Positions 3,583-28,154 of a DNA stretch of 30,430 nt are shown one piece after another; within the stretch, counting starts at the first letter, position 1, and each line of letters begins with the position of its first letter. Both the position numbers and the translations under genes were made by a program. Location: contig CAYQOD010000001.1 of assembly GCA_964419065.1 (NCBI GenBank), positions 1 to 30,430 on the forward strand, written 5' to 3'. This DNA is from an uncultured Thermodesulfobacteriota bacterium (lineage in GTDB: Bacteria > Desulfobacterota > B13-G15 > RBG-16-54-18). The notes under the pieces are model-generated. The model was not told where the DNA came from and did not search any database. It saw nothing but the letters and a program-made list of their open reading frames with translations.

Positions 3583-3602
3583 ATTCATCTCCCTTGTCAG
3601 AC

Positions 3603-3736: not shown

Positions 3737-3764
3737 TTGACAAAATAATCCCGCTGTCTATAAT
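3737..3764 (+). promoter_or_regulatory. Sigma70-type promoter TTGACA-N16-TATAAT for the regulator/polyamine operon
   Basis: Both hexamers are perfect consensus. Confidence 0.75.
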
Positions 3765-3769
3765 ACCTG

Positions 3770-3787
3770 AGTTTATTTTAATAAACT
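3770..3787. promoter_or_regulatory. Palindromic operator candidate AGTTTATT-N2-AATAAACT
   Basis: Perfect 8-bp inverted repeat at the expected transcription start of the promoter above. Confidence 0.55.
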
Positions 3788-3809
3788 TTTTTCTTTTTTA
3801 ACAGGACCT

Positions 3810-4349
3810 TTGGTGAAGATTGGGGAAAAGATTAAGAGTCTCAGGCAACTGCGCTCGTTGACGCAGGAAGAACTGGCAGAGAGGGCTGATCTGACGAAGG
3901 GGTTCATCTCGCAGGTGGAGCGAGATCTCACCTCCATCTCGTTGGACAGCCTCATCCAGATCTTGGATGCCCTGGATGTCGATCTCGTCCACTTCTTTCA
4001 GGAGATGATAGAGGAACGGATCGTTTTTAAAAGAGAGGACAATGTCAGGATTAGCAGAAACGGGGTAGCTGCCTTTGAACTCCTGGTCCCCGGTTCTGCC
4101 AATAGGAGTATGGAGCCGGTCAGACTGACCTTGAAACAGGATGAAAAGACAGAAGAGGGAGAACCACACCCGGGCGAGGAGATGGGATATGTCCTCAAGG
4201 GGAGGGTGAAAATCCGGCTAGGAAATAATTTCTACAGCGCTAAGAAGGGGGAGTGTTTCTATTTCACGGCCAATAAAATCCACCAAATTGGGAATGCGGG
4301 GAAGGGAGAAGCGGTATTCCTCTGGATTACCTCTCCCCCATCCTTTTAA
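3810..4349 (+). CDS. XRE-family HTH transcriptional regulator with C-terminal cupin domain (PuuR-like)
   Basis: HTH LTQEELAERADLTKGFISQVER; cupin HPGEEMGYVLKG...FYFTANKIH; ends WITSPPSF. Start TTG 3810 or GTG 3813. Confidence 0.9.
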   Translation: MVKIGEKIKSLRQLRSLTQEELAERADLTKGFISQVERDLTSISLDSLIQILDALDVDLVHFFQEMIEERIVFKREDNVRISRNGVAAFELLVPGSANRSMEPVRLTLKQDEKTEEGEPHPGEEMGYVLKGRVKIRLGNNFYSAKKGECFYFTANKIHQIGNAGKGEAVFLWITSPPSF

Positions 4350-4426
4350 ATGAGCTGTTGGGAGAGGGTGTTCCAGAAACACCCGATGGTACACTATAAA
4401 TTTTAATGCTAAAGGGGGGTGGATAA

Positions 4427-4843
4427 TTGAAGGCATTAGGAAGACACCTTTTGGCAGAGCTCTTCGGGTGTGATGCGGACCTCCTGAACAATAAGGAGGC
4501 GATTGAAAAGGTCATGAACGGCGCTGCCCTGGTGAGCGGGGCCACGATCGTGGGGAGCGTCTTTCACCTCTTCAATCCCCACGGGATCAGTGGTGTGGTG
4601 GTGATTGCGGAATCCCATTTGGCCATCCATACCTGGCCGGAGTTCCGCTATGCCGCCGTCGACATCTTTACCTGTGGGGAGGAGGTGGACCCCTGGGAGG
4701 CCCATCATTACATCAAGAAGGAGCTCCGGGCGGAGTCGGTCTCAATAGTGGAGATGAAACGGGGTGAGCTCGATCCTCACAATGGTCGTTTATTTCACAA
4801 ACCCCCGCAGGCCATGACTGATTCAGGGCTCCTAAGGGTATAA
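4427..4843 (+). CDS. speD: S-adenosylmethionine decarboxylase proenzyme (short pyruvoyl type)
   Basis: [26 protein letters not shown] self-cleavage motif, DIFTCG. Confidence 0.95.
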
Positions 4844-4844
4844 C

Positions 4845-5321
4845 GTGGTACTGGGCGAATCACCGAAGGGCTTCTTCTTGGTGAGCGGTTCTGCAGAAGG
4901 GTTTACTCCCCTCAATGCCTTTGATGCTGCTTTGATAAATGCCGGCATTGGGGATATCAACCTAGTGAAGGTGAGCAGTATTATCCCCCCGGGGGGTCGC
5001 GAGATTGAACCGCGAGATCTTCCCCGCGGTGCCATTGTTCCGGTGGCGTACAGCTTTATCGTCAGTGACATCCCGGGAGAGGTCATCTCCGCAGCTGTGG
5101 CCGTGGCCCTCCCTAACAACGAGAAGGAAGCCGGGCTGATCATGGAGTATTCCTCTCATGGTCACAGGGAGGAGGCTGAAGAGATCGTGCGGACCATGGC
5201 GGTGGAGGGGATGAAGATTCGCAAAAGGGAGATGAAGGAGATAAAGAGTACCTCCGTCGAATATAAGGTGAAAACGATAGGGGCGGCAATGGCCGCGGTG
5301 GTTCTGTGGCCCTACCATTGA
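4845..5321 (+). CDS. pdaD: Pyruvoyl-dependent arginine decarboxylase
   Basis: LNAFDAALINAGIGDINLVKVS-SIIPP cleavage motif; starts 1 nt after the speD stop. Confidence 0.9.
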   Translation: MVLGESPKGFFLVSGSAEGFTPLNAFDAALINAGIGDINLVKVSSIIPPGGREIEPRDLPRGAIVPVAYSFIVSDIPGEVISAAVAVALPNNEKEAGLIMEYSSHGHREEAEEIVRTMAVEGMKIRKREMKEIKSTSVEYKVKTIGAAMAAVVLWPYH

Positions 5322-5331
5322 GTGATGAAAC

Positions 5332-5355
5332 CCGAAATCCCCATGGGGGTTTCGG
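5332..5355. repeat. Hairpin CCGAAATCCCC-ATG-GGGGTTTCGG
   Basis: 11-bp stem with one G-U pair; no U-tract follows. Confidence 0.6.
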
Positions 5356-5530
5356 TGCACCTCTGGCTAAAAACATACCTTCATTAAAAAAGTGATCAAG
5401 GATGCAAATAAAAGTTTCATAGTCCTCGTGAGCCATGAATCGAGCGGAAGGCCAGCCCCCTGAATCTTTGGGTCATGAGTTAAAAAATCTCCATACTGCT
5501 CCCCAAAAGGAAATATCCCATTGTGGGGGT

Positions 5531-5614
5531 TTCAGGGCCGATCATCGGCCCTGAAGGGAGGGCGAAGGCGACGATGAAGGTTGAAACCATTTCCAGCGTT
5601 TCTTCACGTCGCCT
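5531..5614. repeat. Two adjacent hairpins: perfect 12-bp palindrome (5531-5555) and an imperfect long stem (5566-5614)
   Basis: TTCAGGGCCGAT-c-ATCGGCCCTGAA; AGGCGACG(a)TGAAG ... CTTCACGTCGCCT. Confidence 0.7.
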
Positions 5615-5629
5615 CGGCATTAAATAGTT

Positions 5630-6484
5630 ATGGAATTACTACTCAATTCTCATACGTTCCTCGCCGCCAATTCCACCTATGATAAGAGTTCGATCGTCAT
5701 TGTCGGCTGTCCATTAGACAGTACCACTATCTTCCGGCCAGGGACCCGGTTCGCCCCCCAGGCCATACGCGAGGCTTCGTGGGGGCTAGAGACCTACAGC
5801 CCCCGCCTGAACAGGGATCTGGAAGGTTTGAAGATCTGTGATGTCGGGGATCTCACCCTCCCACTGGGTCATTCGGAGGGTGCCCTGAAGGCAATCGAGG
5901 GGTATCTGGCTACCGTTATGGGAGACGGCAAGTTCCCCATCCTCATGGGGGGTGAGCACCTCATCTCGCTGCCCGCAGTCTGGAAGTGTGCCCGACAGTA
6001 CCCTGACCTCCTCGTGGTCCAAGTGGACGCCCACGCAGACCTTCGCTCCGACTATGAAGGAGAATCCCTGTCGCACGCCACCGTGATGAAAAGGATTGTG
6101 GATCTCCTCGGGCGGGATAATATCTGTCAAGTGGGCATTCGGTCGGGGACGAAGGAAGAAATGCGCTCTGCACAAGAGATGGGGAGCCTCTGCGAGCCAG
6201 GGGAGGTCCTCAGCCGGGGAACAGGGCGGCCGGTCTATCTCACCGTCGACCTCGATATTTTGGACCCCGGGATTGCCCCTGGTGTCAGCACCCCCGAGCC
6301 AGGAGGGTTCACCTTTCATGAGCTCATCTCCCTCATCGACCATTTGAGGTCCCTGCAAGTAGTGGGATTTGACCTCGTTGAGCTCTGCCCGCCCTACGAT
6401 CTCACTCAACAGTCCGCTATGGCAGCGGCCAAGCTCCTTCGAGAGCTCATCCTCCAGTTCTGCTGGGAGAGTGATCGTCCGTAA
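5630..6484 (+). CDS. speB: Agmatinase (ureohydrolase family)
   Basis: GGEH, DAHADL, TVDLDILDP, GVSTPEPGG metal-binding motifs; RPGTRFAP. Confidence 0.9.
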   Translation: MELLLNSHTFLAANSTYDKSSIVIVGCPLDSTTIFRPGTRFAPQAIREASWGLETYSPRLNRDLEGLKICDVGDLTLPLGHSEGALKAIEGYLATVMGDGKFPILMGGEHLISLPAVWKCARQYPDLLVVQVDAHADLRSDYEGESLSHATVMKRIVDLLGRDNICQVGIRSGTKEEMRSAQEMGSLCEPGEVLSRGTGRPVYLTVDLDILDPGIAPGVSTPEPGGFTFHELISLIDHLRSLQVVGFDLVELCPPYDLTQQSAMAAAKLLRELILQFCWESDRP

Positions 6485-6525
6485 GGATTAATTCACCTTG
6501 CCAAGGAGCGTGAATTCAGGTAAGG

Positions 6526-8028
6526 ATGAAGAAAGATGTAGTTTGTAGAAGCATGATGGACTACGACGCGATCATCATCGGTGCCGGATTAGGGGGATTG
6601 GTGTGCGGCACCCTCCTCGCCCAGAGGGGGTGGCGGGTGGCCATCTTTGAGAAGAAGAACAGGGTTGGGGGATGTTGCGCCTCGCTGATGCGCGGCGGAT
6701 TTACCTTCGACCTCTCGGTGCAGTCCATGGGGGGGTGCAGGGAGGGAGAGCGGACCTGGAGGCTCTTGGACCAACTGGACCTCAGGGAACGGATCGAACT
6801 TCTCCACCTGGATCCGGCCCGTGAGTACCACTTCCCCGATCTCGTGATCCGGCAGTACGCCGATGTGGGATCCCACGTGGACCACCTCTGTTCTCTCTTT
6901 CCCCGCGAGCGGAAGGGCATCAACGAGGTCTACCGGATTTACCGCTCTCTTGCCGAGGAGATCGATCGCCTCCCTGAGACCCTCTCGTGGTTTGACCCCG
7001 CGCGGTTCGCCCGGGAGTTCCCCTCCATGTTTCAGTACCGGGACAAGACCCTCCAGGATGTGCTGGGTTCACACATCAAGGACCCAAAACTCAGGGTGAT
7101 CCTGGGGGTGAGGAGCTCTTACACCCTACTGCCACCCAGCAGACTCTCCCTTATCGCCATGGCTGCCCTCGAGATGAGCTACCTGCAGGGGGGAGTGGCA
7201 GTGGTGAAGGGGAAGATGGAGCAGCTACCTCAGCTCCTGGCCGCGGGGTTTCGAGACGCCGGGGGGCAGCTCCATACCCGGCAGGAGATAAGAAAGATCA
7301 TGGTAGAGGAGGGAAATACGGTAGGCGTGCAGCTCAAGGGGAGAGAAACGGTTACCTCCCGGGTAGTGGTCTCCAACGCCGATGCCACCTCCACCTTCTT
7401 GGGGATGGTCGGGAAGGAGTCCCTGCCGAACGGTTGGGTCAAGCGGCTGATGGGGATGCAGCCGTCTCTCTCTTACTTCATCGTCTATCTGGGCGTTGAG
7501 GGGGAACTGAACCTCTCGAATTCCAACAATGAGATCTTCCCTGGCTATGACCTGGAGGAGGAGTACCGATATCTGGATGAGGGGACGATTCCCCCAACTC
7601 CCCCCTACTATCTGCTCGCACCCTCCCAGGTGAACCCCTCTCACGCCCCCGCGGGATGTAGCACCGTGTGCCTGAGCTATAAGGCCCCCTATCACCTGCG
7701 GGAAAGGTGGAACGGGAAGACGCGGGAGGCCCTGGCCAAACGGATCATCGCCCAGGCCGAAGGGATGATCCCCCACCTGCGCAGAAGGATCGTCGTGCAG
7801 GTACGCTCCACCCCTGTAACCATCGAGCGGATGACGGGCAACCGCTGGGGTGCGGCCTACGGGTGGGCTCAGGTCCTGCGGCAAGCGGGGATCTATCGAC
7901 TCAACAGGGTATCCCCCATCGACGGGCTCTACCTGGCCGGCCACTGGACCGCCCCGGGAGGGGGGGTGGCTGCGGCCATGGCCTCGGGGCAGATAACCGC
8001 CGATCTGATTGGGGAGAGACTACAGTGA
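6526..8028 (+). CDS. Phytoene desaturase/CrtI-like FAD-dependent oxidoreductase
   Basis: N-terminal GAGLGGL...FEK...VGG dinucleotide fold; C-terminal GAAYG, GLYLAGHWTAPGGGV. Start may be 6553/6556. Confidence 0.85.
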   Translation: MKKDVVCRSMMDYDAIIIGAGLGGLVCGTLLAQRGWRVAIFEKKNRVGGCCASLMRGGFTFDLSVQSMGGCREGERTWRLLDQLDLRERIELLHLDPAREYHFPDLVIRQYADVGSHVDHLCSLFPRERKGINEVYRIYRSLAEEIDRLPETLSWFDPARFAREFPSMFQYRDKTLQDVLGSHIKDPKLRVILGVRSSYTLLPPSRLSLIAMAALEMSYLQGGVAVVKGKMEQLPQLLAAGFRDAGGQLHTRQEIRKIMVEEGNTVGVQLKGRETVTSRVVVSNADATSTFLGMVGKESLPNGWVKRLMGMQPSLSYFIVYLGVEGELNLSNSNNEIFPGYDLEEEYRYLDEGTIPPTPPYYLLAPSQVNPSHAPAGCSTVCLSYKAPYHLRERWNGKTREALAKRIIAQAEGMIPHLRRRIVVQVRSTPVTIERMTGNRWGAAYGWAQVLRQAGIYRLNRVSPIDGLYLAGHWTAPGGGVAAAMASGQITADLIGERLQ

Positions 8029-8036
8029 GAAGATCG

Positions 8037-8663
8037 ATGTCTATGAGATGTGGGTTTATCGGCTTCATCATCTGTGTGCTGGTGCTGGGTTGTGCACCGA
8101 AGCGGATGCCGGAGGAGGGGTGGGAGCGGATACCCCTCTCTCAAATCGTTCCGACGACCATCATGAGATATCAGGGGGTACGCTCGCTGCAGGCCCAGCT
8201 CTCCGTGAAGCTGGAGGTGCAGGATGACTTCTATCTCCTGCGAGGGATCCTCCTCTATGAAAACCCCGCCTCTCTGCGTTTACAACTCGCCTCGAGCCTC
8301 GGTCCGACAGTAGGAGAGGTAATCTACGCAGACGGTCTCCTCGTTATCCTCGTGCCCAGTGAAGGGAAACTCTACCGGGGGTGGCTGAATCAGGATTCCC
8401 AGCCAGGGGAAGATACCCTCTTTCTCACGCTGAACTTTCAGGATTACCATGATATGGGAACAGGGCAGTTTCCCACCACTATCTACGGCGTGGTTGAGAA
8501 CGCCGGCGTTAGGTTCGAGCTGCGTCTCAAAGAGCCGAAAATTGATCTCCCCCTGTCTGCGGAGGCCTTCACCACCCCCAGAGCAGGGTGGGAGGTCCAT
8601 CCCCTAGCGGACCTGAAGAAGCTCCTCCATACAGCCAAAGGACAGGGGATCAGTGAAGATTAA
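8037..8663 (+). CDS. Putative lipoprotein with LolA/LolB-like (DUF4292-like) fold
   Basis: 3' part of ORF 7707-8663. ATG 8037, 8 nt after the previous stop, gives a hydrophobic signal ending VLGC; beta-rich body; C-terminal LSAEAFTTPRAGWEV resembles LolA-type tails. Fold call is tentative. Confidence 0.65.
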   Translation: MSMRCGFIGFIICVLVLGCAPKRMPEEGWERIPLSQIVPTTIMRYQGVRSLQAQLSVKLEVQDDFYLLRGILLYENPASLRLQLASSLGPTVGEVIYADGLLVILVPSEGKLYRGWLNQDSQPGEDTLFLTLNFQDYHDMGTGQFPTTIYGVVENAGVRFELRLKEPKIDLPLSAEAFTTPRAGWEVHPLADLKKLLHTAKGQGISED

Positions 8664-9975
8664 GATCATTGTCCCTCGCTGGCCCAAGGACAGCTTCTGG
8701 GACGTCATCACCTTTAAGTTTCCCTCCCTGAACACCACTCTGCTGGCCGCCCTCACCCCGGTCGACCACCAGGTCTCCATCTACGACGAGAGCATCGTCC
8801 CCCTGGACCTTGATGAGAATTGTGACCTGGTCGCCATCACCGCCATGACCCCCCTGGCCCCTCGGGGATACGAGATCGCCGATGAGTACCGGCGCAAGGG
8901 GGTGCAGGTGATCATGGGAGGCATACATCCTACCTGGCTGCCTAATGAGGCTATCGCCCACTGCGATGCGGTAGTGATCGGTGAGGCCGATGAGATCTGG
9001 CCGGAGGTGGTGAGGGATGCGACCCGGGGGGAGCTGAAGCGGTTTTACCGGCAGCAGAGACGCACCGATCTCTCACGCCTACCCCTACCCCGTCGGGACC
9101 TCTTGAACTCCAAGGGGTACTTCTTCGAGAACACCATCCAGACCACCCGGGGGTGCCCCTTTGACTGTGAGTTCTGCTCCGTGACGGCCATCTATGGGGG
9201 GACCTATCGGACCCGCCCTCTCGAGGAGGTGGAGCGGGAGATCAGCTCCCTGCGTCGGGCAGCGGCCTACATCTTCTTCGTCGATGACAACGTCGTAGGC
9301 GACATCAGGTACGCCCGTAAGCTCTTCACCATGCTCTCCCAGTACCATCTGCGGTGGGTGAGTCAGAGTCCCATCACCATCGCCCAGAACGAGGAGCTGA
9401 TCCGTCTCATGGCTCGGGCAGGGTGCCACGGGATGTTCATCGGCTTTGAGAGCCTCAGCCCCAAGAACCTGGCCCTGATGGGGAAGAAGACCAACAAGGT
9501 GGAGCGCTACGAGGCGGGGATCAAGCGGCTCCATGACCATGGAATTGGGGTCCACGCCTCCTTTGTCTTCGGGTACGACTACGACGATCCTTCGGTCTTC
9601 GAGGGCTTCCTCTCCTTTGCTCACCGGACCAAGATCGATGGTGCCTTTTTGCCGATACTGACCCCCTTTCCCGGCACCAGGATCCACCAGCGGTTGAAAA
9701 AAGAGGGCAGGATCATCACCGAGGACTGGAGCAAGTACGATATGGCCACCGTGGTCTTCAGACCCAAGGGGATGACAGTCGAGCAGTTGCAGGAAGGGTT
9801 CTGGTGGGTCAACAGGGAGTTCTACTCCGTCCGCTCCATGTTCAGACGGATCTTTCAACCCTTCGCCCTGCGCCGAAGCCTTATCATCTTCGGACCTATG
9901 AACATCGGCCACTGGCCGGCGGTGCGCAGGGCCGAGCGGTATTTTTACCGAAAGGGGGCCCTGTCACATGCTTGA
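8653..9975 (+). CDS. B12-binding domain radical SAM protein
   Basis: Cobalamin-binding-like N-terminus (VAITAMT...VIMGGIHPT...VVIGEAD); TTRGCPFDCEFC; FVDDN; IGFES; LTPFPGT. Overlaps the upstream stop. Confidence 0.9.
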   Translation: MKIKIIVPRWPKDSFWDVITFKFPSLNTTLLAALTPVDHQVSIYDESIVPLDLDENCDLVAITAMTPLAPRGYEIADEYRRKGVQVIMGGIHPTWLPNEAIAHCDAVVIGEADEIWPEVVRDATRGELKRFYRQQRRTDLSRLPLPRRDLLNSKGYFFENTIQTTRGCPFDCEFCSVTAIYGGTYRTRPLEEVEREISSLRRAAAYIFFVDDNVVGDIRYARKLFTMLSQYHLRWVSQSPITIAQNEELIRLMARAGCHGMFIGFESLSPKNLALMGKKTNKVERYEAGIKRLHDHGIGVHASFVFGYDYDDPSVFEGFLSFAHRTKIDGAFLPILTPFPGTRIHQRLKKEGRIITEDWSKYDMATVVFRPKGMTVEQLQEGFWWVNREFYSVRSMFRRIFQPFALRRSLIIFGPMNIGHWPAVRRAERYFYRKGALSHA

Positions 9976-12475
9976 GCTCTTTCTGAAAAGGGCTGCTCGC
10001 CTCTCCGTGCGCCACCCCAAGCGGGTCCTGATCGCCTTTGTGCTGGTTCTCATCGCGGCCTTTCTGATCACCGGGAGGCTGCGCTTTGAGACCGATTGGT
10101 TGCAGCTTTTGCCCACCGACCAAGGGGCGCTCAAGGTCCTGGTGGAGGATCTGCGGGGGTTTGGCCAGTTGGAACGCCTCTATATCCTCGTGGAGGGGGA
10201 TCGGAAGGATACGATCATCGAGTCCGCCCAGGGGCTCAGGAGGTCTCTGGCCGAACTGGAGATCGGGGGTTCCAAGGCGTTTACACGGGTCTTTTCAGGA
10301 ATAGAAGCGGACCTTGCGGGATGGCAAGAGCTGCTTGACCTCTATGTCTCCCATCCCCAGCTCTACCTCAACGAGGATGAGGCGGGGGAGTTCACGGCGC
10401 GGCTCTCCGACGATAAGATCCGGGAGCAGATCCGCACGGCCAAGGGGCTGCTCATAAGCTACCTCTCCCCTGGCTGGAGGGATTTGGTCCTCACCGACCC
10501 CCTGGCGCTACGAGAACTGCTCTTGAAACGGTGGCAGGGAAAGTCCCCCTGGGCCCCCTCCCTGGCCGAGGGTTACCTCATCTCCCCGGATGGGGATACG
10601 CTGCTCATGGTGGCAGAACCGGCCTTCCCCTCTGCTGACTGGCGATCCTCCCAGGAGCTGGTGCAGAAGTTAAAGCCCATAACCAAGGCCTTTCCCCAGG
10701 TACGGATCTCCTTTGTGGGCCCCCATACCATGACCGTCGGCAAGGCGGGGGTGTTACAGAAGGATCTCCTCGTCTCCTTTGTGGGTTCGTTCATCATGGT
10801 GCTTGTCCTTTTCTATCTCGCCTACCGGCGGTGGGCAACGCTGCTCTTTGTCGGACTTCCGCTGCTGGTGGGGGTACAGCTCACCATGGGGGTCGCCGCA
10901 CTCTTTACCTCAGGGCTCAACCTCATCACGGTCTCCTTCGCTGCCATCATCGTGGGCTTGGGGATCGACTTTGCCATCCATATCTACCAACGCTACCATA
11001 ATGAACGCACAGCAGGTCGGGGGATGGAGACAGCGCTGGAGATCGCCCTGACGAAGACCGGAAAGGGGGTATGGACCGGAGGGCTTACCACCATCGCGGC
11101 CTTCCTCACCCTGGTACTGGCCCGCGTCAAGGGGATCATGGAACTGGGGGTGCTGGTCGCCGTGGGACTGGTCTTCTGCCTGCTGGCCACCTCCCTGGTG
11201 TTGCCCTCCTTTTTGGTCTGGATGGAGGGGAGGGGGTACCGGCATCGACCCCTGGGCGGGTGGGGTCTGGAGCGCCTCATCAATCTTCTGATAGCTCACT
11301 ATCGCACAATCATCATCGTCCTCATATCCCTGGCTATCGCCGGGGCATATCTGGGGGCTCGGGTGAAGATCATGGAAGGGGTGGAGGGATTTCGTCCCCG
11401 CGGACTGGAGGGCGTGCAGACCCTGGAAAGGATGCAGCAGGAGTTTGGAGGGGTAGGAAAGGGCATTACCGTGCTGCTCGAGGGAGCAGATCTGGATGGC
11501 CTCCTGCAGCAGCAGGAGGCCATCGCGGCATCCCTCCAGGATGAGTATGGGGAGAAAATCCTGTTTTTCTCTCACCTGGCCCAGTTTGCCCCCTCCACCG
11601 AGGGCCAACAACGGGTGCTGGCGGCGCTCCGTCAGGGGATGGACTACGAAAGGATCGCCCGATCCCTTACCACCGCCCTGAAGACAGAGGGCCTGAACCC
11701 GGCCCTCTTCGCACAACCCCGGCAGATGCTGCGGAGTCTGGCCCACGATCAAGTCCTCCTTGCCCCGACAGCGCTCTTGCAACAGCTCGCCAGCACACCC
11801 TTGGCCGAGATAATAGAGCGCTATGCGATGAAGACAGAGGGAGGGTACCGGTTGCGGCAGGAGATCCGATTCGATCCGACCGGGGTCGACCCCCTCCGGT
11901 TGCAGGAGGCGATCACGAGAATCGCCCCCCAGGCCCAGTGCACGGGCAACGAACTCATCGCCCTGGAATTGCGGGAGATGGTGAAACGCGATCTCACCCT
12001 CCTGGCTCCCCTGGCCCTGGTGTTGGTGCTCATTCTGCTCTTTTGGCACTTCAGAAACCCCCTCTGGGTGGTGATGGCCCTGTCTCCCCTCTTGGTTGGG
12101 GTAGCCTACATGCTGGGGATCAGCGTCCTTTTGGGAATAGAGTTTAACCCGACCAATGCGGTGGCGGTTCCTTTGATCATCGGCATGGGAATCGACGACG
12201 GCATCCATATCGTCCACCGCTACCGCGAGAGGAAGGATGTGGCGTCGGCGGTCAGGTTTACGGGCAAGGCGGTCATCATGACCTCATTAACCACCATGGC
12301 GGGTTTCGGCTCGTTAAGTACCTCGCACTTTCCGGCCCTCTCCTCCCTCGGCAAGCTTGTCATCATCGGCATGGGGAGCTGCCTGCTCACCTCCCTGGTC
12401 TTGCTCCCGTCCCTTATGGTAGCGGTTGGTGGCAAAACAGGACAAAAGAAAAAGGGATCTTTAAAGAAGGAGTAA
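9968..12475 (+). CDS. MMPL/RND-family membrane transporter (HpnN-like architecture)
   Basis: Two TM bundles each preceded by a large soluble loop; motifs GLGIDFAIH and GMGIDDGIH; TTIAAF and TTMAGF repeats. Overlaps the upstream stop. Confidence 0.9.
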   Translation: MLELFLKRAARLSVRHPKRVLIAFVLVLIAAFLITGRLRFETDWLQLLPTDQGALKVLVEDLRGFGQLERLYILVEGDRKDTIIESAQGLRRSLAELEIGGSKAFTRVFSGIEADLAGWQELLDLYVSHPQLYLNEDEAGEFTARLSDDKIREQIRTAKGLLISYLSPGWRDLVLTDPLALRELLLKRWQGKSPWAPSLAEGYLISPDGDTLLMVAEPAFPSADWRSSQELVQKLKPITKAFPQVRISFVGPHTMTVGKAGVLQKDLLVSFVGSFIMVLVLFYLAYRRWATLLFVGLPLLVGVQLTMGVAALFTSGLNLITVSFAAIIVGLGIDFAIHIYQRYHNERTAGRGMETALEIALTKTGKGVWTGGLTTIAAFLTLVLARVKGIMELGVLVAVGLVFCLLATSLVLPSFLVWMEGRGYRHRPLGGWGLERLINLLIAHYRTIIIVLISLAIAGAYLGARVKIMEGVEGFRPRGLEGVQTLERMQQEFGGVGKGITVLLEGADLDGLLQQQEAIAASLQDEYGEKILFFSHLAQFAPSTEGQQRVLAALRQGMDYERIARSLTTALKTEGLNPALFAQPRQMLRSLAHDQVLLAPTALLQQLASTPLAEIIERYAMKTEGGYRLRQEIRFDPTGVDPLRLQEAITRIAPQAQCTGNELIALELREMVKRDLTLLAPLALVLVLILLFWHFRNPLWVVMALSPLLVGVAYMLGISVLLGIEFNPTNAVAVPLIIGMGIDDGIHIVHRYRERKDVASAVRFTGKAVIMTSLTTMAGFGSLSTSHFPALSSLGKLVIIGMGSCLLTSLVLLPSLMVAVGGKTGQKKKGSLKKE

Positions 12476-12677
12476 TGGGGCGGCTGCGTTTGAAGTGGCC
12501 TATGACTATTCTTAAGTGAGTCCAAAATTCTATTTGCACTCCATGCTATCACGATATATAGTTTGAAGGTGGAAAATTAAGGAGCGATTTCCCACATTTC
12601 AGGGGATAACATACCAATGATTTTATATGCTAATAGCAATATCAAGCAAAATTTTTCCATCTATTAACAAGATAAAA

Positions 12678-13427
12678 ATGAGAAACCCCATAAGGAGATA
12701 ATACATTAAAAGCATTTGGATAATTGGATTAGGTACCCTTATAATCTATTCTCTCCTGGGGAGTTTTTCGTACGCTCAAGAAAAGCATTTTCCTCTAAAG
12801 CTCCTTATAACATCAAATAAATCTGTATATCACAAAGGAGAACCTATAGACCTTAAAATTTCATTACAAAACGTGAGCAATCACCAAATAACGTTGTTCC
12901 ATCCCCCTTCTCTTAACATGGCATGGTATGAGTGGGAGCTGAAATGTTCTGTGTCAAAGCCGGATGGGAATCATATGACCCTTGAGCCAGAAATCATGTT
13001 TGCAATGATTCCCAGGGTAAGAAAAGAAGACTTTCACATATTGCATCCAGGTGAGACAATACATATCCCAGTACGATTAGAAATTGAAGGTGACCCATTA
13101 AAAACCCACACGAAAAGTGGTTGGGTGGCTCTCATGGAAATTACAAAGTTCGAAAGTACTCTACCACCTGAAGCATTAAAGAGGAAATATCATATACAAG
13201 GGGAGATGAGTTATATTACTGGAGGGAAAGAATACTTAGCCATAAGAGATATTCTTCGAGATGTGTTCAATCTGAACGGGGAGTATCAAATAGAAGTTCA
13301 CTATAGCAATTTTCACAATACATTTTTAGCACCAAACGAAGGAACCAGTTATTTAGTTCCTGTTAGTGTTCATAACGCTTGGACAGGAAAGCTCTCTGAA
13401 AAAACTGCAATAACTATCCAGAAGTAA
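12678..13427 (+). pseudogene. Exported hypothetical protein with an in-frame TAA at codon 8
   Basis: ATG 12678 is in frame with ORF 12873-13427: MRNPIRR*YIKSIWIIGLGTLIIYSLLGSFSYAQE..., open apart from TAA 12699-12701; signal-peptide-like N-terminus. Confidence 0.6.
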
Positions 13428-13430
13428 GGT

Positions 13431-13500
13431 ATCTAACACCGAGATGGAGTTGGACTTTGAGAGGCGCGGCAATCCGCACTGCTGAACTCAGCCGTCAGCT
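13431..13500 (+). mobile_element. Degenerate integron attC-like site
   Basis: ATCTAAC (fits RYYYAAC) 3 nt after a stop codon; GAGATGGAG/CTGAACTC L-box-like arms; degenerate R' GTCAGCT; 70 bp. Confidence 0.5.
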
Positions 13501-13547
13501 TATTGCCAGAAGACAAGGGCTGAAGCCTTTGAAGGAGGGGTGATGCA

Positions 13548-14072
13548 ATGGCTGTTCCTGTAGACCATCATAATTATGTAAAGATGATAAAAGCGAATAT
13601 GCTGTTTCGGTATATGTCAGAGGAGGAATTCTTAAAATTTCTCGCCGGAGCAGAACTCATGAAGTATACCAATGGTGAGATAATAATCTCCCAGGGTGAG
13701 GTAAGTCAGTTTTTGTACTGTTTGATTAAGGGGAGCGTTGAAGTTTCCGCATACGAAAAAGAAGACGATTTCTTTATTTACGCCCTCGAAGAAGGAGAAA
13801 TATTTGGAGAGGCCGCCCTTTTTCTGACCGAACTCAGAATTGCAAACGTGAAAAGTTCAGGGGATTCTCTTATCATCAGAATAAACAGGAGTAACTTAAT
13901 CAAATTCATCAGTGAATATTCTCAAGCGGGCAATAGGATTCTTATCATGATCATATACAGCCTTCTCAAGAAACTGCGAGCATCCACAAAGGAGATCACC
14001 GTAGCCAGGAAGCTGTATGCTGAGGTGAAAAAAATGAAAGCCCAAATGGAAAAGCTCTTACAAGAGTTATGA
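13548..14072 (+). CDS. Cyclic nucleotide-binding domain protein (Crp/Fnr-like sensor without an obvious HTH)
   Basis: IISQGE...LYCLIKGSVEV...GEIFGEAALF...RIANV; SD AGGAGG. Confidence 0.85.
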   Translation: MAVPVDHHNYVKMIKANMLFRYMSEEEFLKFLAGAELMKYTNGEIIISQGEVSQFLYCLIKGSVEVSAYEKEDDFFIYALEEGEIFGEAALFLTELRIANVKSSGDSLIIRINRSNLIKFISEYSQAGNRILIMIIYSLLKKLRASTKEITVARKLYAEVKKMKAQMEKLLQEL

Positions 14073-14115
14073 ACGGACTTTGAGAATCCCGCACCACTGA
14101 GTTCGATCGTTCGGC
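14068..14115 (+). mobile_element. Second, internally deleted attC-like site homologous to 13431-13500
   Basis: Shares GGACTTTGAGA (11/11), ATCC(C)GCAC and a CTGAxxTC box with the first site; TGAAC (containing the stop codon) pairs with GTTC of GTTCGGC. Confidence 0.45.
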
Positions 14116-14186
14116 GTATTGATCGGTTTGCCCAGACTATTCAATGAAGTAACCACTTGAGTCGATTGGGAGAAAGGAGCTAGCCT

Positions 14187-14648
14187 ATGGATTACGTACG
14201 TGATATAGACTCGCTTATCCATACCCTATACGAATCTATCTCTGGTCCAGCAGGACAAGAACGTCAGTGGGATCAGATGCGTCACATGTTTTTCCCGAGG
14301 GCTCATATGATAAGAACTTCTGTTGCAGATGATGGTACCCCTCTAGCCCTTGTAATGGATGTTGAAACGTACATTGAAACAACTTCTGATTACTTTCAAG
14401 AACATGGATTCTATGAACGGGAGGTTGCCCGTCGCACTGAGATATTTGGCAATATAGCTCACGTTTTCAGTACTTATGAGGCTCGTCATAGCCCGGATGA
14501 TCCTAGTCCGTTCAGACGAGGTATCAATAGTATCCAGTTATTTTATGCCGGACAGCAGTGGTGGATAATTAATATGATATGGGACAACGAACGTGAGGAC
14601 AACCCAATGCCGGCAAAGTATTTGTCGTCAGGATCAGACGAACGATAA
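14187..14648 (+). CDS. Hypothetical protein, NTF2/SnoaL-like fold
   Basis: YESISGPAG..R.WD, FYEREVARRTEIFGNIAHVFSTYE, RGINSIQL, WWIINMIW pattern; SD AAGGAG. Confidence 0.7.
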   Translation: MDYVRDIDSLIHTLYESISGPAGQERQWDQMRHMFFPRAHMIRTSVADDGTPLALVMDVETYIETTSDYFQEHGFYEREVARRTEIFGNIAHVFSTYEARHSPDDPSPFRRGINSIQLFYAGQQWWIINMIWDNEREDNPMPAKYLSSGSDER

Positions 14649-14761
14649 CGTAATCAGGCAGTGTAACGGACCGCTTGTACAAGACACATGAGATTACTGA
14701 CGGAGTACTTGCTGAACGAGGGCAAAGTTGGTATCCTCTGCTCAAGGTTACCACGCATTGA

Positions 14762-14900
14762 AGCTAACCGCGCTATCGAACGGATTATATCGACGACCAA
14801 ATGATTTGAAAGTACTTTGACCAAGTGAGGTGTAGTAAACAAACGGCGCGACAGTTCAAGGCGCAGTTGTTTCGTAGTTCGATGTTGCGAGGTGTTATCT
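14762..14900 (+). mobile_element. Possible third attC-like remnant
   Basis: AGCTAAC/GTTATCT outer pair and ATCGAAC/GTTCGAT inner pair, but the spacers (6 vs 10 nt) are non-canonical. Confidence 0.25.
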
Positions 14901-15674
14901 GTGAGAAAGGGACAGGTTAGAGGTATCATCTTTGATATTGATGGGGTGCTGGAATTTCAGGGGGAGGTCTATCCTGGGGCAATTAAAACCATCAATGTGT
15001 TGAGAAACAGAGGTATTGTTCTGAGATTCTTGACCAACAGTACACTGAAGAGCCGCACGTCTTGTGCTGAAAAGTTAAGGAAGGCTGGTTTCCGGGTATT
15101 CGATGAAGAAGTCATTACCGCTTCGTATGCCACTGCGGTCTATCTTGGAACGTTACAGCCTCGCTCCTGCTGGGTAATGCTGGAAAGGGAAGGGCTTGAT
15201 GAGTTCAAGGGCTTCCAGCAAGATACGGAGAATCCAGAGTACATCGTCGTAGGGGATAACAGAAGTAGGTTTGATTTCGAACATCTAAACAAAGCCTTGA
15301 GCCTGTTACTCAAAGGGGCGAAGTTGATAGGTATGCAGTCAGAGCTTATTGATACGAGCATGGGGGAGGCAGAACTGAACGTTGGCTCCTGGGTAGGAAT
15401 GTTAGAAAGAGCGGCTGGCGTGGAGACGACATACATAGGGAAACCCAATCCTTACGTATTTGATCTGACGGTGAAGATGATGGGACTGGACAAGAGTGAG
15501 GTGATTATGGTGGGGGACAGGGTGTCCACTGATGTGAAGGGGGCAAAGGAGTTTGGGATAAGGTCAGTTCTGTTGAGGACAGGCGAGTTCGATGAGAGGG
15601 AGCTCGATGGAAGCATCGAGCCGGATTTCATCTGCAATTCTGTAGGGGATGTGCTGGCAGTAGTTGAACAGTAG
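14901..15674 (+). CDS. HAD-IIA family hydrolase (NagD/LHPP-like)
   Basis: FDIDGVL, FLTN, GKPNP, MVGDRVSTDV. GTG 14901 chosen for GAGGT upstream (ORF opens at 14892). Confidence 0.9.
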   Translation: MRKGQVRGIIFDIDGVLEFQGEVYPGAIKTINVLRNRGIVLRFLTNSTLKSRTSCAEKLRKAGFRVFDEEVITASYATAVYLGTLQPRSCWVMLEREGLDEFKGFQQDTENPEYIVVGDNRSRFDFEHLNKALSLLLKGAKLIGMQSELIDTSMGEAELNVGSWVGMLERAAGVETTYIGKPNPYVFDLTVKMMGLDKSEVIMVGDRVSTDVKGAKEFGIRSVLLRTGEFDERELDGSIEPDFICNSVGDVLAVVEQ

Positions 15675-15861
15675 GAGAGGATCTCCTAATCGCTTTTGAA
15701 CGTCGATGGTGCAGCGTGTCTCGCGTCCTGTGAGAAGTTATCGCAACAAAACATGAAAGGAGGATTAAAAAGGCGTGAAGAGGAGGATATACTGGATTTT
15801 CATGGTTTGTGAGTGACGAAGCCATCATGGTCAAGTAGTCAACAAATGGAAAAAATCCGTT

Positions 15862-16599
15862 TTAATATTTAACCTCGGTGAGGAAGAGGCCGTGGGCAGG
15901 GGCGGTCATCCCTGCCCGGCGTCTGTCGCGGGCCCGAAGGATCTCCTCAAATTCCGCAGGGGAGGTCTTCCCCCGGCCCACATCCACCAGGGTCCCTACG
16001 ATGCTGCGGACCATCTCCCGCAAGAATGCATTGGCCTCCAAGACCACTATGATCAGGTCATTCTCCCTTCGTTCAATCTCCAGGCGCAGAACTTCCCTGA
16101 CCGAGTGGCGGTTCTCATCACCACTGGTCCGGAAGGAGGAGAAGTCATGAGTTCCGATCAGAACCTTCCCGCAACGCCGCATGGAGATGAGGTCGAGCTC
16201 ATGGGGGATAAACCAGGCAAAATGCCGCCGGATGGCCGAGGGATGGGAGCGGTTCAGGATACGGTATTCGTAGACCTTACTCTTTGCGCTGAAGCGGGCG
16301 TGAAAACCCTCCTCGGCCTCCTCAGCCGATCTGACGACGATATCTGGTGGCAGGAGGCTGTTTAACCCCCGCTGCAGGGAGGATAGATCTATGGTGCTCT
16401 CCGTTGTGAAGTTGGCCACCTGACCCAGGGCATGGACTCCGGCATCGGTCCTCCCCGCACCGATGAGGCTCACCTCCCCTTGGGTGATCTGGGCGATCTT
16501 CTCCCCCATCACCCCCTGAATGGTCCTGAGCCCCGGTTGGATCTGCCAGCCGTGGTAGGCGGTCCCGTCATACTCGATGGTCAGCTTGATGTTCCTCAT
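15862..16599 (-). CDS. truA: tRNA pseudouridine(38-40) synthase
   Basis: MRNIKLTIEYDGTAYHGWQIQ, GAGRTDAGVHALGQV, FHARF, APAHGLFL. Start ATG 16599 overlaps the upstream TGA. Confidence 0.95.
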   Translation of the reverse strand: MRNIKLTIEYDGTAYHGWQIQPGLRTIQGVMGEKIAQITQGEVSLIGAGRTDAGVHALGQVANFTTESTIDLSSLQRGLNSLLPPDIVVRSAEEAEEGFHARFSAKSKVYEYRILNRSHPSAIRRHFAWFIPHELDLISMRRCGKVLIGTHDFSSFRTSGDENRHSVREVLRLEIERRENDLIIVVLEANAFLREMVRSIVGTLVDVGRGKTSPAEFEEILRARDRRRAGMTAPAHGLFLTEVKY

Positions 16600-17723: not shown

Positions 17724-17892
17724 CGGTCAGACACCTCCCTTCCATATGTGGATGATTTCCGCCTTTGAGAAGGCCCACCAGACTGAGGCGCGATAACGGT
17801 CCGAGAGGTGATGGTGAGGGGTGCTGCGGCGTCCATGGTGGTGTATAGGGAAGATGGTGGCAGAAAAGAGGCCTTCACCCCCCAAGGTCTCT

Positions 17893-19185: not shown

Positions 19186-19228
19186 AGGCAAAGGTCGTTT
19201 CCTCACTATAAAGAATAAATTAAGCCTA

Positions 19229-19257
19229 ACGATAAAGGTATCGGAGAAATTTTTCAA
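19229..19257 (-). promoter_or_regulatory. Possible sigma70 promoter TTGAAA-N17-TATCGT for fabF
   Basis: Spacing is correct; hexamers are imperfect. Confidence 0.4.
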
Positions 19258-19297
19258 GAAAAAACTGATCTCAATGTTCTCATCCGGGCCGATAAAA

Positions 19298-19326
19298 TTG
19301 ACGTCTGCCTCATTTTTAGCTATGAT
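19298..19326 (+). promoter_or_regulatory. Sigma70 promoter TTGACG-N17-TATGAT for bamD
   Basis: 5/6 matches in both hexamers, 17-nt spacer. Confidence 0.7.
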
Positions 19327-19359
19327 GGGTTATTTTATAAGTAAGGGGGATATAATGAT

Positions 19360-20571: not shown

Positions 20572-20615
20572 ATCGAGGTCACGAGGGCCCTGCATGGTGA
20601 AAGATCGGGTTTGGA

Positions 20616-20642
20616 GGGGGATCGTATCCCCCCTTCTTTTTA
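20616..20642 (+). terminator. Possible intrinsic terminator after bamD
   Basis: GGGGGAT-cgt-ATCCCCC stem followed by CTTCTTTTT. Confidence 0.5.
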
Positions 20643-20654
20643 TTGGTTCCAGGG

Positions 20655-24399: not shown

Positions 24400-24411
24400 T
24401 GCCCTCTGGTA

Positions 24412-25815: not shown

Positions 25816-25831
25816 CGCCTAAACCCTCCTC

Positions 25832-25873
25832 ATCCCCCCTCATCCCCCTTTAGAAAAGGGGGGATGGGGGGAT
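25832..25873. repeat. REP-like C/G-rich hairpin between the two reductase subunit genes
   Basis: ATCCCCCC(t)CATCCCCCTT-TAGAA-AAGGGGGGATGGGGGGAT. Confidence 0.75.
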
Positions 25874-25891
25874 TTGAATTGGAAATCCTCT

Positions 25892-28105: not shown

Positions 28106-28154
28106 GTCATTCTTCTCATGTCTGGACAACAATGAGACAGCTTAATATATCAAA

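Follow-up and report, generated by a model that had tools for sequence, protein, structure and literature searches.

The window, a 30,430-nt stretch at the start of a contig (CAYQOD010000001.1) from an uncultured Thermodesulfobacteriota bacterium of sulfate-reducer type, carries four consecutive genes on the + strand, for which the open reading frame list and the raw sequence agree. Genes 1 and 2 are separated by a gap of 8 nt, and the next two junctions are overlaps of 11 nt and 8 nt, as the first-pass annotation had described:

6526 to 8028, + strand: gene 1, CrtI/CrtISO-family FAD oxidoreductase ("PDH-like"); ATG 6526, TGA 8028, 500 aa
8037 to 8663, + strand: gene 2, LolA/LolB-fold lipoprotein (fold from a structure model); ATG 8037, TAA 8663, 208 aa
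8653 to 9975, + strand: gene 3, class B (cobalamin-binding) radical SAM enzyme (rSAM) with C-terminal DUF4070; GTG 8653, TGA 9975, 440 aa
9968 to 12475, + strand: gene 4, MMPL/HAE3-type RND transporter, HpnN-related; ATG 9968, TAA 12475, 835 aa

The same abutting or overlapping layout is found at two related loci (L001 and L004), and since the arrangement recurs on dozens of independent contigs, it is no chance adjacency: the genes are a genuine, conserved unit. Directly upstream lies a polyamine-biosynthesis array, overlooked in the first-pass annotation, which we treat as context outside the lipid module (3737 to 6484, + strand; promoter, regulator and polyamine genes, with gene assignments from Pfam/NCBIfam):

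3737 to 3764, + strand: consensus promoter, matching the sigma-70 consensus at 12/12 positions
3810 to 4349, + strand: HTH-cupin regulator
4427 to 4843, + strand: AdoMet decarboxylase
4845 to 5321, + strand: pyruvoyl arginine decarboxylase
5630 to 6484, + strand: agmatinase

No strong promoter or terminator was detected 5' of 6526, and the polyamine genes are probably co-transcribed with the four-gene module, judging from these signals. Within the window we found no ACP, KS/CLF pair, dehydratase, acyltransferase or LolA gene, and no squalene synthase, phytoene synthase, cyclase (squalene-hopene cyclase included) or hpn gene, in agreement with the absences reported earlier. The "atypical FabF" about 5.4 kb away, to which the module had been tentatively linked, is close to the canonical form, its Cys-His-His triad being intact. 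It is encoded on the opposite strand as part of another operon, and no other close-clade locus has it nearby; we do not retain the link.

Domain and fold assignments

The gene 1 product matches Pfam Amino_oxidase (125 bits) and NAD_binding_8 (62 bits), scores 188 bits against the crtI_fam model TIGR02734, under its cut-off of 238, and falls far under the cut-offs of the CrtISO and CrtD equivalogs. Its nearest solved structures, 4REP (E 3e-30) and 4DGK (E 1e-23), are CrtI/CrtD-type enzymes, and no signal peptide was found in it. We propose that it desaturates, isomerises or saturates a C–C bond in a long acyl or polyene chain. Most homologues are 493 aa long, so translation may really begin at the Met-Met at about 6553; the gap between the agmatinase gene and gene 1 would then be about 68 nt instead of 41, with no effect on the finding.

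Gene 2 had been called simply a lipoprotein, a description borne out by a signal peptide ending at a lipobox (Gly18-Cys19) that is invariant in 34 homologues, with Cys19 as the predicted lipidated residue and Ala at +2. The protein has no match in Pfam, NCBIfam or a PDB sequence search. Its AF2 model (pLDDT 75) retrieves in Foldseek best matches that are all LolA/LolB (E 3.6e-8, probability 1.0), and on this modelled LolA/LolB fold, typical of a lipid carrier or receptor, we place it on the export side of the module and propose that it receives or carries the lipid product at the outer membrane. It is homologous to a Geobacter LolB-like gene sited between LolA and MMPL genes (hhalign 97.7%), and its family is small, with 174 representatives at E<=1e-3 among 1.84 billion.

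The gene 3 product contains B12-binding (40.6 bits), Radical_SAM (75 bits) and DUF4070 (29 bits) domains, each above the Pfam cut-off, and a CxxxCxxC motif at residues 168-175 (C168-x3-C172-x2-C175). Its GTG start at 8653 is supported by the 20 of 20 aligned homologues that begin at the same Met-Lys-Ile. The best NCBIfam matches, BchE (104 bits) and PhpK (97 bits), are far under their cut-offs, as are the "ladderane" rSAM model TIGR04072 (76 bits, cut-off 360), HpnJ (78 bits, cut-off 578) and HpnR (65 bits, cut-off 650). The nearest solved structure is 9CCB (MgmA). Orthologues in Thermodesulfobacteriota MAGs are 67-87% identical, with a mean column identity of 82% in the alignment. The proposed role of this enzyme is to methylate a lipid chain or to form a C–C bond on it.

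Gene 4 encodes a transporter with two MMPL halves (Pfam MMPL, 136 bits) and the motifs GLGIDFAIH and GMGIDDGIH. Its best NCBIfam match is HpnN TIGR03480 (261 bits, cut-off 752); HAE3 TIGR00921 scores 236 bits (cut-off 352) and BstA, a sterol transporter, 175 bits. The nearest solved structures are those of HpnN (6WU0 and 5KHN), and the MmpL4/5 siderophore exporters are also among its PDB matches. We propose that it draws the product out of the inner membrane via the proton gradient. Thus, as the first-pass annotation had expected, none of the genes falls in a characterised clade: no curated equivalog cut-off is reached by any of the four proteins, and scores for HpnN, HpnP/R/J, BchE, CrtI/D and TIGR04072 are all far under theirs.

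Conservation and gene neighbourhoods

The 48 loci examined collapse to 35 distinct clusters at 97% nucleotide identity, and the unit conserved among them is a triad of the CrtI-like gene, the LolB-like lipoprotein gene and the rSAM gene. In the close clade, the lipoprotein gene is retained at 31/31 and the CrtI-like gene at 21/21 testable loci; in a 60-78% clade, where the rSAM is about 70% identical (the 70% clade), tblastn recovers the CrtI-like gene at 7/7 and the lipoprotein gene at 8/10. The CrtI-like gene is 5' of the lipoprotein gene at every testable locus of both clades (21/21 and 7/7). The conserved core of what was described earlier as a four-gene operon is therefore the triad. The MMPL gene stands directly 3' of the rSAM gene in about 8 of 12 distinct close lineages, as it does in L008 and L013; about one close lineage in three, and the majority of the 70% clade, have no such gene next to the triad. 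At L008, where the rSAM and MMPL genes are present, the 872 nt upstream contain no lipoprotein ORF, and L013 has the same four families reordered (Lipo-like, rSAM, MMPL, CrtI-like, then a second B12-rSAM).

In the 70% clade, a type II FAS-like cluster lies next to the triad or is fused to it; this cluster encodes an active/dead ketosynthase pair, a FabZ-like dehydratase, two SAM methyltransferases and LolA. In L010 the triad forms the 3' end of a same-strand array (KS, Sm_multidrug_ex, FabZ-like, MT, MT, LolA, KS, dead KS, CrtI, Lipo, rSAM), and L001, L002, L009, L011, L074, L120 and L121 carry these FAS-like genes 2-10 kb upstream. Paralogues of the rSAM (46-51% identical) are found in aryl-polyene-type clusters of Geobacter, together with LPLAT, GT2, FabG, KS/CLF, dehydratase, LolA, LolB-like and MMPL genes. 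There, the paralogue gene begins 3 nt after the end of a gene for an ApeF-like ACP, which shares 41-47% identity with E. coli ApeF. Hopanoid or carotenoid genes were found in none of the neighbourhoods examined, and the annotated +/-10 kb of L001, L002, L004, L120 and L121 contains no isoprenoid synthase, cyclase or hpn gene.

Comparison with known systems

The CrtI-like and B12-rSAM pairing mirrors, as had been noted, that of anammox "Cluster I" (KustE3603-3608), which comprises amxACP, amxFabZ, amxFabF2/amxFabFmut, a PDH and a cobalamin-dependent rSAM, has syntenic counterparts in Desulfotalea psychrophila, and whose PDH-like enzyme and B12-rSAM have been proposed in that literature as the chain-modifying enzymes. 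Both systems are flavoprotein–radical SAM pairs of anaerobes with a putative role in chain modification, and in L010 and similar loci genes for a FabZ-like dehydratase, SAM methyltransferases and an active/dead KS pair likewise accompany the two enzymes. However, the score against TIGR04072 places the window rSAM in a different orthologous group from the anammox enzyme; the window has a LolB-fold lipoprotein gene between the two enzyme genes and an MMPL exporter gene after them; it lacks ACP, FabZ and KS genes; and its host belongs to a Thermodesulfobacteriota lineage in which, to our knowledge, ladderanes are neither known nor expected. The triad is thus related to, yet distinct from, the enzyme pair suspected in ladderane synthesis.

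For the export half, the closest parallels are aryl polyene (APE) and flexirubin clusters, which encode ApeL (LolA-like), ApeM (RND/MMPL) and ApeN (DUF3261, LolB-like), or LolA2/LolB2. As in those clusters, an MMPL transporter and a Lol-fold lipoprotein sit beside lipid-chain biosynthetic genes, and the Geobacter paralogue clusters share with them the genes listed above, from the ApeF-like ACP to the MMPL transporter. In contrast, the window lipoprotein has no sequence relationship to E. coli ApeN/DUF3261 (hhalign probability 1.6%), its MMPL protein is only 25% identical to ApeM across about 240 residues (one half), and LolA and all core APE biosynthetic genes are missing from the window. We know of no APE cluster with a CrtI-like enzyme or a B12 radical SAM. 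LolA-like, RND and LolB-like proteins form a proposed outer-membrane export route for aryl-polyene lipids (PMC8253772) and likewise for flexirubin (PMC11885536).

The hopanoid system (the B12-rSAM C-methylases HpnP/HpnR, HpnJ and the RND transporter HpnN) also combines a B12 radical SAM with an HpnN-like MMPL protein for an outer-membrane-bound lipid; it differs in the low scores given above, in the absence of shc/hpn genes from the neighbourhoods examined and in the FAS-II-like context. Gene 3 itself shares with BchE (its best full-length match), PhpK, MgmA and Gmm an N-terminal B12-binding domain followed by a radical SAM core with CxxxCxxC, with scores of at most 104 bits, far under the equivalog cut-offs. 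Since BchE is a cyclase whereas PhpK, MgmA and Gmm are methylases, homology leaves the chemistry of gene 3 undecided.

Interpretation of the module

A lipid tailoring and export role, as first suggested, is the best reading of the locus. We lean, with somewhat better than even confidence, towards oxygen-independent tailoring and outer-membrane export of a specialised fatty-acid- or polyene-derived lipid, an acyl or polyene substrate being indicated by the KS/CLF-type FAS-II genes and ACP that adjoin the relatives. In the order of steps that we infer, the precursor would be built in related genomes by the active/dead ketosynthase pair, FabZ-like dehydratase, SAM methyltransferases and ACP. The CrtI/CrtISO-like flavoprotein may then alter C–C bond saturation or geometry in the long chain at the cytoplasmic face, and the B12 radical SAM would functionalise a chain carbon without oxygen, by C-methylation or C–C bond formation. 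The MMPL transporter, driven by the proton gradient, could lift the finished lipid from the inner membrane, and the LolB-fold lipoprotein would take it over on the outer-membrane side. Relatives, unlike the window, also encode a soluble LolA-like carrier.

Several observations sit against this reading. The flavoprotein and transporter have their nearest curated relatives in isoprenoid-related families (CrtI, HpnN), the MMPL gene is not always beside the triad, L008 is without a lipoprotein ORF and the window is without the ACP, KS/CLF pair, dehydratase, acyltransferase and LolA genes, and the lipoprotein and MMPL protein are, respectively, unlike ApeN/DUF3261 and distant from ApeM.

Could the module instead remodel acyl chains of bulk phospholipids in place, for instance by introducing methyl branches in mid-chain or altering trans/cis geometry, as a homeoviscous adaptation? 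Such a role would require no dedicated synthase, with the MMPL protein and lipoprotein merely redistributing modified lipids, and would fit the close clade, where no dedicated KS/CLF, ACP or acyltransferase was found within 10 kb, and the unusually high conservation of the rSAM, as for a housekeeping-type enzyme. Intact membrane lipids are, moreover, substrates of other radical SAM enzymes (review, PMC13459092). However, the FAS-like adjacency in the 70% clade and the ACP directly 5' of the paralogue point to a dedicated, probably carrier-bound precursor, and a LolB-like receptor with an MMPL transporter implies that the product is exported to a target and not remodelled in bulk; we consider remodelling unlikely.

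An isoprenoid module (hopanoid, squalene or carotenoid-type), with a CrtI-type desaturase, an HpnP/HpnR-like methylase and an HpnN-like transporter to the outer membrane, is similarly improbable. The best curated matches (crtI_fam, CrtISO, CrtD, HpnN, BstA, HpnJ and HpnR) and the nearest structures of the flavoprotein and transporter are indeed isoprenoid-linked, but each score is well under its cut-off, the synthase, cyclase and hpn genes are absent from the window and the five annotated neighbourhoods, and relatives are flanked instead by KS/CLF, FabZ-like, FabG, ACP and LPLAT genes. The hopanoid analogy (HpnP/HpnR/HpnN) drawn in the first-pass annotation finds no support in the context.

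More doubtful still is that the module makes, oxidises or exports a polyamine derivative, such as an acylated polyamine or siderophore-like compound. MmpL4/5, among the transporter's structural matches, export lipid-tailed siderophores, gene 1 has an amine-oxidase fold, and the arginine decarboxylase (PvlArgDC) and agmatinase genes lie same-strand and directly 5' of the triad in 19/19 testable close-clade loci, a linkage steadier than that of the MMPL gene, with the perfect consensus promoter ahead of the whole array and no convincing promoter or terminator between agmatinase and gene 1. Yet the linkage is found in 0/7 testable 70%-clade loci, the triad there adjoining FAS-like genes, and the flavoprotein's specific matches are carotenoid-type members, not polyamine or monoamine oxidases. 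The upstream polyamine set itself varies, with AdoMet decarboxylase in the window and carboxyspermidine dehydrogenase and decarboxylase in L004, which suggests an operon neighbourhood rather than a shared pathway.

A conserved triad with a frequent exporter

The first-pass annotation had described four same-strand genes joined by an 8-nt gap and two overlaps of 11 and 8 nt, an arrangement that both the open reading frames and the junctions bear out:

6526-8028, + strand: gene 1, CrtI-family flavoprotein with Amino_oxidase and TIGR02734 matches
8037-8663, + strand: gene 2, lipoprotein with a lipobox and a predicted Lol fold
8653-9975, + strand: gene 3, B12-binding radical SAM enzyme (B12-rSAM) with B12-binding, Radical_SAM and DUF4070 matches
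9968-12475, + strand: gene 4, MMPL transporter with two MMPL halves

As read in the sequence, the gap lies between genes 1 and 2. Genes 2 and 3 overlap by 11 nt, gene 3 beginning at a GTG before gene 2 has ended, and genes 3 and 4 overlap by 8 nt, the ATG of gene 4 coming ahead of gene 3's stop codon TGA. Homologues back this start for gene 3: all of them (20/20) open with Met-Lys-Ile at one alignment column.

We collected at least 80 loci from species-representative genomes with a profile of the B12-rSAM, and 33 more from metagenomes with a profile of the lipoprotein, which serves as an independent anchor; the presence of each gene was scored by tblastn, and the counts refer to testable loci. 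In the close clade, where the B12-rSAM is at least 78% identical, the lipoprotein is present at 31/31 loci, the CrtI-like gene at 21/21 and the MMPL gene at 10/17. The corresponding figures for the clade of 60-78% identity (the 70% clade) are 8/10 by tblastn, 7/7 and 2/8. Dereplication at 97% nucleotide identity reduced 48 loci to 35 clusters, and the MMPL gene stands directly 3' of the B12-rSAM in about 8 of 12 distinct close-clade lineages; close-clade loci that lack it carry an unrelated ApbA/PanE-type reductase 3' instead. Of the two loci of this second clade at which tblastn missed the lipoprotein, L013 encodes a divergent lipobox protein that matches the lipoprotein profile (hhalign probability 90%), and its gene order (lipoprotein-like, B12-rSAM, MMPL, CrtI-like, second B12-rSAM) presents the same four families, reshuffled. 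At the other, L008, the B12-rSAM and MMPL genes are present, and the 872 nt upstream are free of any lipoprotein ORF. Because the CrtI-like and lipoprotein genes are kept at nearly all testable loci while the MMPL gene is often missing, the conserved core is a triad of CrtI-like gene, lipoprotein and B12-rSAM, which the exporter often accompanies but which can do without it. The coupled four-gene unit first proposed is thus upheld for the three genes of the triad, and for the MMPL gene it is reduced to a common association.

The four proteins and their families

The first-pass annotation had also raised the prospect that the proteins might fall inside characterised clades; this was checked, and none of the four reaches a curated equivalog cut-off. 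On their Pfam and NCBIfam assignments, we place them outside the characterised equivalogs. Gene 1 has a FAD-binding Rossmann motif (IIGAGLGG, residues 16-23), an Amino_oxidase match spanning residues 22-495 and an NAD_binding_8 match of 62 bits (Pfam). It has the full-length amine-oxidase fold with an N-terminal Rossmann motif, but lies below the CrtI family cut-off, with 187.9 bits against TIGR02734 (NCBIfam curated cut-off 238.1) and 104-149 bits against the equivalogs CrtISO, CrtD and CrtO (cut-offs 500-1000).

The N-terminus of gene 2 reads MSMRCGFIGFIICVLVLG-C19-APK, a lipobox signal peptide with a residue other than Asp at +2, and neither Gly18 nor Cys19 varies among 34 homologues, which are about 205 residues long. 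No Pfam or NCBIfam model matches it at E<=0.01, including LolA, LolB and DUF3261, and a sequence search against the PDB gave nothing meaningful, so the informative evidence is the predicted fold. An AlphaFold2 model built on the homologue alignment (pLDDT 75, pTM 0.74) returned LolA or LolB for almost all of its 45 top Foldseek matches in the PDB (E down to 3.6e-8, probability 1.0, TM 0.5-0.6). Because of these matches and the lipobox, we assign gene 2 as a predicted Lol-fold (open beta-barrel with a helical lid), lipid-binding lipoprotein. In E. coli, a residue other than Asp at +2 directs a lipoprotein to the outer membrane, and by this rule the product of gene 2 would be located there. By sequence the family is small: when 1.84 billion representative proteins were searched with its profile, only 174 relatives reached E<=1e-3, and only 18 reached E<=1e-10. 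A relationship to ApeN can be dismissed, as hhalign against the E. coli protein gives a probability of 1.6%.

Gene 3 carries an N-terminal B12-binding domain (PF02310, 40.6 bits, cut-off 32.1) followed by the radical SAM core (PF04055, 75 bits) and DUF4070, and its CxxxCxxC motif (C168, C172, C175) is invariant in 21 sequences. This is the architecture of a class B cobalamin-dependent radical SAM enzyme, with predicted cobalamin binding and radical chemistry. Its best curated matches are BchE (104 bits), PhpK (97 bits) and HpnJ (78 bits), its best full-length relative is BchE and its best solved relative is MgmA (PDB 9CCB). Since BchE is a cyclase while MgmA, PhpK and HpnR are methylases, homology does not decide between these chemistries. 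The AlphaFold2 model of gene 3 (pLDDT 58, pTM 0.46) is too poor for structural inference or a fold search. Among the matches listed, the many orthologues 67-87% identical all come from uncultured "Deltaproteobacteria" or Thermodesulfobacteriota assemblies, so that, provisionally, no cultured carrier is found among them. Labels that annotation pipelines attach to homologues ("YgiQ family", "phytoene desaturase", "prolycopene isomerase", "retinol 13,14-reductase") were excluded as evidence.

Gene 4 matches PF03176 over two stretches (136 bits) and SecD_SecF_C (59 bits), and has one charged motif in each MMPL half (GLGIDFAIH and GMGIDDGIH). These Pfam matches place it in the MMPL/RND superfamily, but below the HpnN cut-offs: it scores 261.3 bits against TIGR03480 (cut-off 751.85), 175 bits against NF052374 (cut-off 1100) and 236 bits against HAE3 (cut-off 352). 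We do not count it as a member of the aryl-polyene (APE) transport set, as it is only 25% identical to ApeM over about 240 residues of a partial alignment. Scans of the window agree with the earlier statement that squalene-hopene cyclase, phytoene synthase and ACP are absent; no hopanoid genes were found near gene 4, and genes for squalene synthase, phytoene synthase or a cyclase, like those of the hpn type, are absent from the window and from all annotated flanks (L001, L002, L004, L120 and L121, loci with relatives of the module).

Lipid-synthesis genes beside relatives of the triad

The neighbourhood of the triad differs between clades. At L010, a locus of the 70% clade, a same-strand array runs through a divergent KS, an Sm_multidrug_ex membrane protein, a FabZ-like dehydratase, two SAM methyltransferases, a LolA protein whose best match is the flexirubin LolA2 model, and two further KS genes before reaching the triad. 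By alignment, one of the three KS active sites retains Cys-His-His and two have the triad of residues destroyed, a KS/chain-length-factor arrangement that resembles both ApeO/ApeC and the anammox amxFabF2/amxFabFmut heterodimer. The same FAS-like genes lie 2-10 kb upstream of the triad, with variable filler between, at seven more loci (L001, L002, L009, L011, L074, L120 and L121). The triad of the 70% clade thus adjoins a type II FAS-like cluster. In the 30 kb of the window, LolA, a FabZ-like gene, a methyltransferase, an LPLAT, an ACP and a KS/dead-KS pair are all absent. Co-location of the anammox Cluster I type (ACP, FabZ, KS/dead-KS) is accordingly missing from the window and partial at L010, where no ACP was seen.

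A paralogous B12-rSAM clade, 46-51% identical, has members in Geobacter, Desulfuromonadales, Syntrophorhabdus, Thermodesulfovibrionia and others. These lie within aryl-polyene-type clusters that contain polysaccharide deacetylase/DUF3473, GT2, SPASM-rSAM, a lipid-A-type acyltransferase, the B12-rSAM itself, an MCAT-like gene and a second B12-rSAM, together with FabG, KS, dead KS, a FabA-like dehydratase, LolA, a LolB-like lipoprotein and MMPL. The LolB-like gene of the Geobacter cluster is homologous to the lipoprotein of the window (hhalign 97.7%, E 1.6e-12), and at 13 such loci an ACP 41-47% identical to ApeF of E. coli CFT073 ends 3 nt before the rSAM start. The APE core set (ACP, KS/CLF, KR, DH, LPLAT, GT, ApeL/M/N) is present in the paralogous Geobacter clusters and not in the window, which has only an MMPL and a Lol-fold protein.

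Several of these clusters deserve mention in their own right. The Geobacter-type APE-like clusters with two B12-rSAMs and a SPASM-rSAM (L017-L033, for example L025 at 5824-21268), some of them in cultivable genera, have an ApeF-like ACP gene ending 3 nt before the first B12-rSAM and resemble a hitherto undescribed APE branch decorated with rSAM enzymes. Paired B12-rSAM paralogues also occur in Acidobacteriota/Holophagales (L031, L036), and a Nitrospirota MAG (Thermodesulfovibrionia, L016) has such a pair next to two KS/CLF pairs, with a CrtI-like gene farther off.

Polyamine genes upstream and an unlinked FabF

Upstream of the triad, on the + strand, lie genes for an HTH-cupin regulator, AdoMet decarboxylase, pyruvoyl arginine decarboxylase and agmatinase (3737-6484 with the promoter), headed by a 12/12 consensus sigma-70 promoter at 3737-3764. 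The 41-nt spacer before gene 1 contains only a ribosome-binding site and a weak hairpin that is AT-rich and lacks a T-run; nothing there makes a convincing promoter or terminator. Arginine decarboxylase and agmatinase stand 5' of the triad at 19/19 testable close-clade loci and at 0/7 in the 70% clade. The polyamine gene content itself varies, with carboxyspermidine dehydrogenase and decarboxylase at L004 and AdoMet decarboxylase in the window. This linkage may reflect either an inherited operon neighbourhood or real co-regulation. As to co-transcription, the sequence was found in public DNA runs only and in no RNA run. Rfam and tRNA scans of the window gave no match, including none to a cobalamin riboswitch. 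Between arginine decarboxylase and agmatinase there is a 309-nt gap (5322-5629) with no called gene, Rfam match or tRNA, the equivalent at L004 being about 22 nt.

A possible link to an "atypical FabF", suggested in the first-pass annotation, can be set aside because the FabF (17893-19257, - strand) is near-canonical, reaching 486.5 bits with TIGR03150 (cut-off 493.75) and 463 with PRK07314 (cut-off 387), has an intact Cys-His-His triad, sits on the opposite strand in an array with DUF362 and TruA, and has no counterpart downstream of or near the module at other close-clade loci. In its region (15862-19257, - strand), this orphan FabF, which has an N-terminal extension of about 25 residues, forms an apparent operon with a DUF362/4Fe-4S protein and TruA, with no acpP, fabG or fabD nearby.

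A proposed tailoring and export route

To our knowledge, the oxygen-free functionalisation of inert lipid chains by anaerobes is largely unexplained. A PDH-like (phytoene-dehydrogenase-like) enzyme paired with a B12-rSAM is the leading candidate for ladderane formation in anammox bacteria, and we know of no anammox bacterium that can be grown in pure culture. The module, by which we mean the triad together with the MMPL gene, most likely serves the tailoring and export of a fatty-acid- or polyene-derived lipid. For the steps beyond fold and domain assignment, we infer from gene context and published proposals that the cytoplasmic CrtI/CrtISO-like flavoprotein would first desaturate, isomerise or saturate a bond of the chain, after which the B12-rSAM could methylate a chain carbon or make a C-C bond without oxygen. 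The MMPL pump would then pull the product from the inner membrane, and the LolB-fold lipoprotein would take it at the outer membrane, assisted in relatives by a LolA-like carrier.

Comparable export routes have been proposed for APE lipids via ApeL/M/N (PMC8253772) and for flexirubin via LolA2/LolB2 (PMC11885536), and proposals for anammox Cluster I are available (bioRxiv 10.64898/2026.05.19.726425; review PMC13459092; Rattray 2009, PMC2649909). In its working, the module would combine the PDH/B12-rSAM pair of Cluster I with an APE-type Lol/MMPL export set, yet it is a member of neither. Its B12-rSAM lies outside the "ladderane-type" family TIGR04072 of anammox bacteria and Desulfotalea (75.9 bits, cut-off 360), its lipoprotein and MMPL protein differ from ApeN and ApeM, and genes 4 and 1 score below the cut-offs for HpnN and CrtI. 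Genome mining has noted "ladderane-like" clusters in Desulfobacterota with function unassigned (PMC9902471). In the searchable literature, we found no description of a triad with an embedded LolB-fold lipoprotein, or of its location in a polyamine operon. The carriers of the module among the matches listed are all uncultured.

Could the triad be a self-contained, oxygen-free machine for a lipid modification without precedent? Its target would be an outer-membrane lipid that uncultured Thermodesulfobacteriota derive from fatty acids, and the change might be a C-C bond formed by radical chemistry, a ring, or methylation in the middle of a polyunsaturated chain. We consider this rather unlikely. 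If true, the triad would be functionally akin to the anammox PDH/B12-rSAM pair, could stand in as a simpler and portable system for studying how ladderanes are made, and would yield a new lipid biomarker for anaerobes; in the clade of the window, it may then be co-regulated with polyamine synthesis as one part of an envelope programme.

The unit itself is genuine, highly conserved and portable to experiments, and it touches on an open question. As a compact three-gene relative of the anammox pair with export parts of its own, it would make a small construct for heterologous expression, would give a handle on the products of "ladderane-like" clusters mined outside anammox bacteria, and could be behind lipid biomarkers in sediments that are so far unassigned. 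It would also broaden the concept of dedicated outer-membrane routes, built from Lol-fold proteins and MMPL pumps, for lipids other than lipoproteins.

Other features of the window

DNA nearly identical to 5600-12500 occurs in runs labelled fossil metagenome, with a lower share in runs under other organism labels; such samples seem to contain the bacterium as an anaerobe from the environment or as a contaminant. A cluster at 23557-28132 (- strand) encodes two BcrAD/BadFG-type ATPases and two HGD-D subunits, of the benzoyl-CoA reductase/2-hydroxyacyl-CoA dehydratase type, which is consistent with a strictly anaerobic host. Right after the MMPL stop, G+C falls from 0.59-0.62 in the four genes to 0.41-0.46 (12476-15000), a stretch that holds two ORFs without a Pfam match (12873-13427 and 14187-14648) and a cNMP-binding protein (13548-14072), and that may be of different origin. 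At 985-3588 (- strand) lies an 867-residue radical SAM protein with Radical_SAM_N2, a weak B12-binding match and a C-terminal DUF2344, unrelated to the B12-rSAM of the module. A 233-residue protein with a retropepsin-like aspartyl protease domain is encoded at 22608-23309 (- strand). Finally, 19360-20571 (+ strand) encodes a BamD/YfiO-type TPR lipoprotein whose C-terminal part (residues 286-390) is an LptA/LptD_N domain; it is unusual for modules of outer-membrane protein assembly and LPS transport to be fused in this way.
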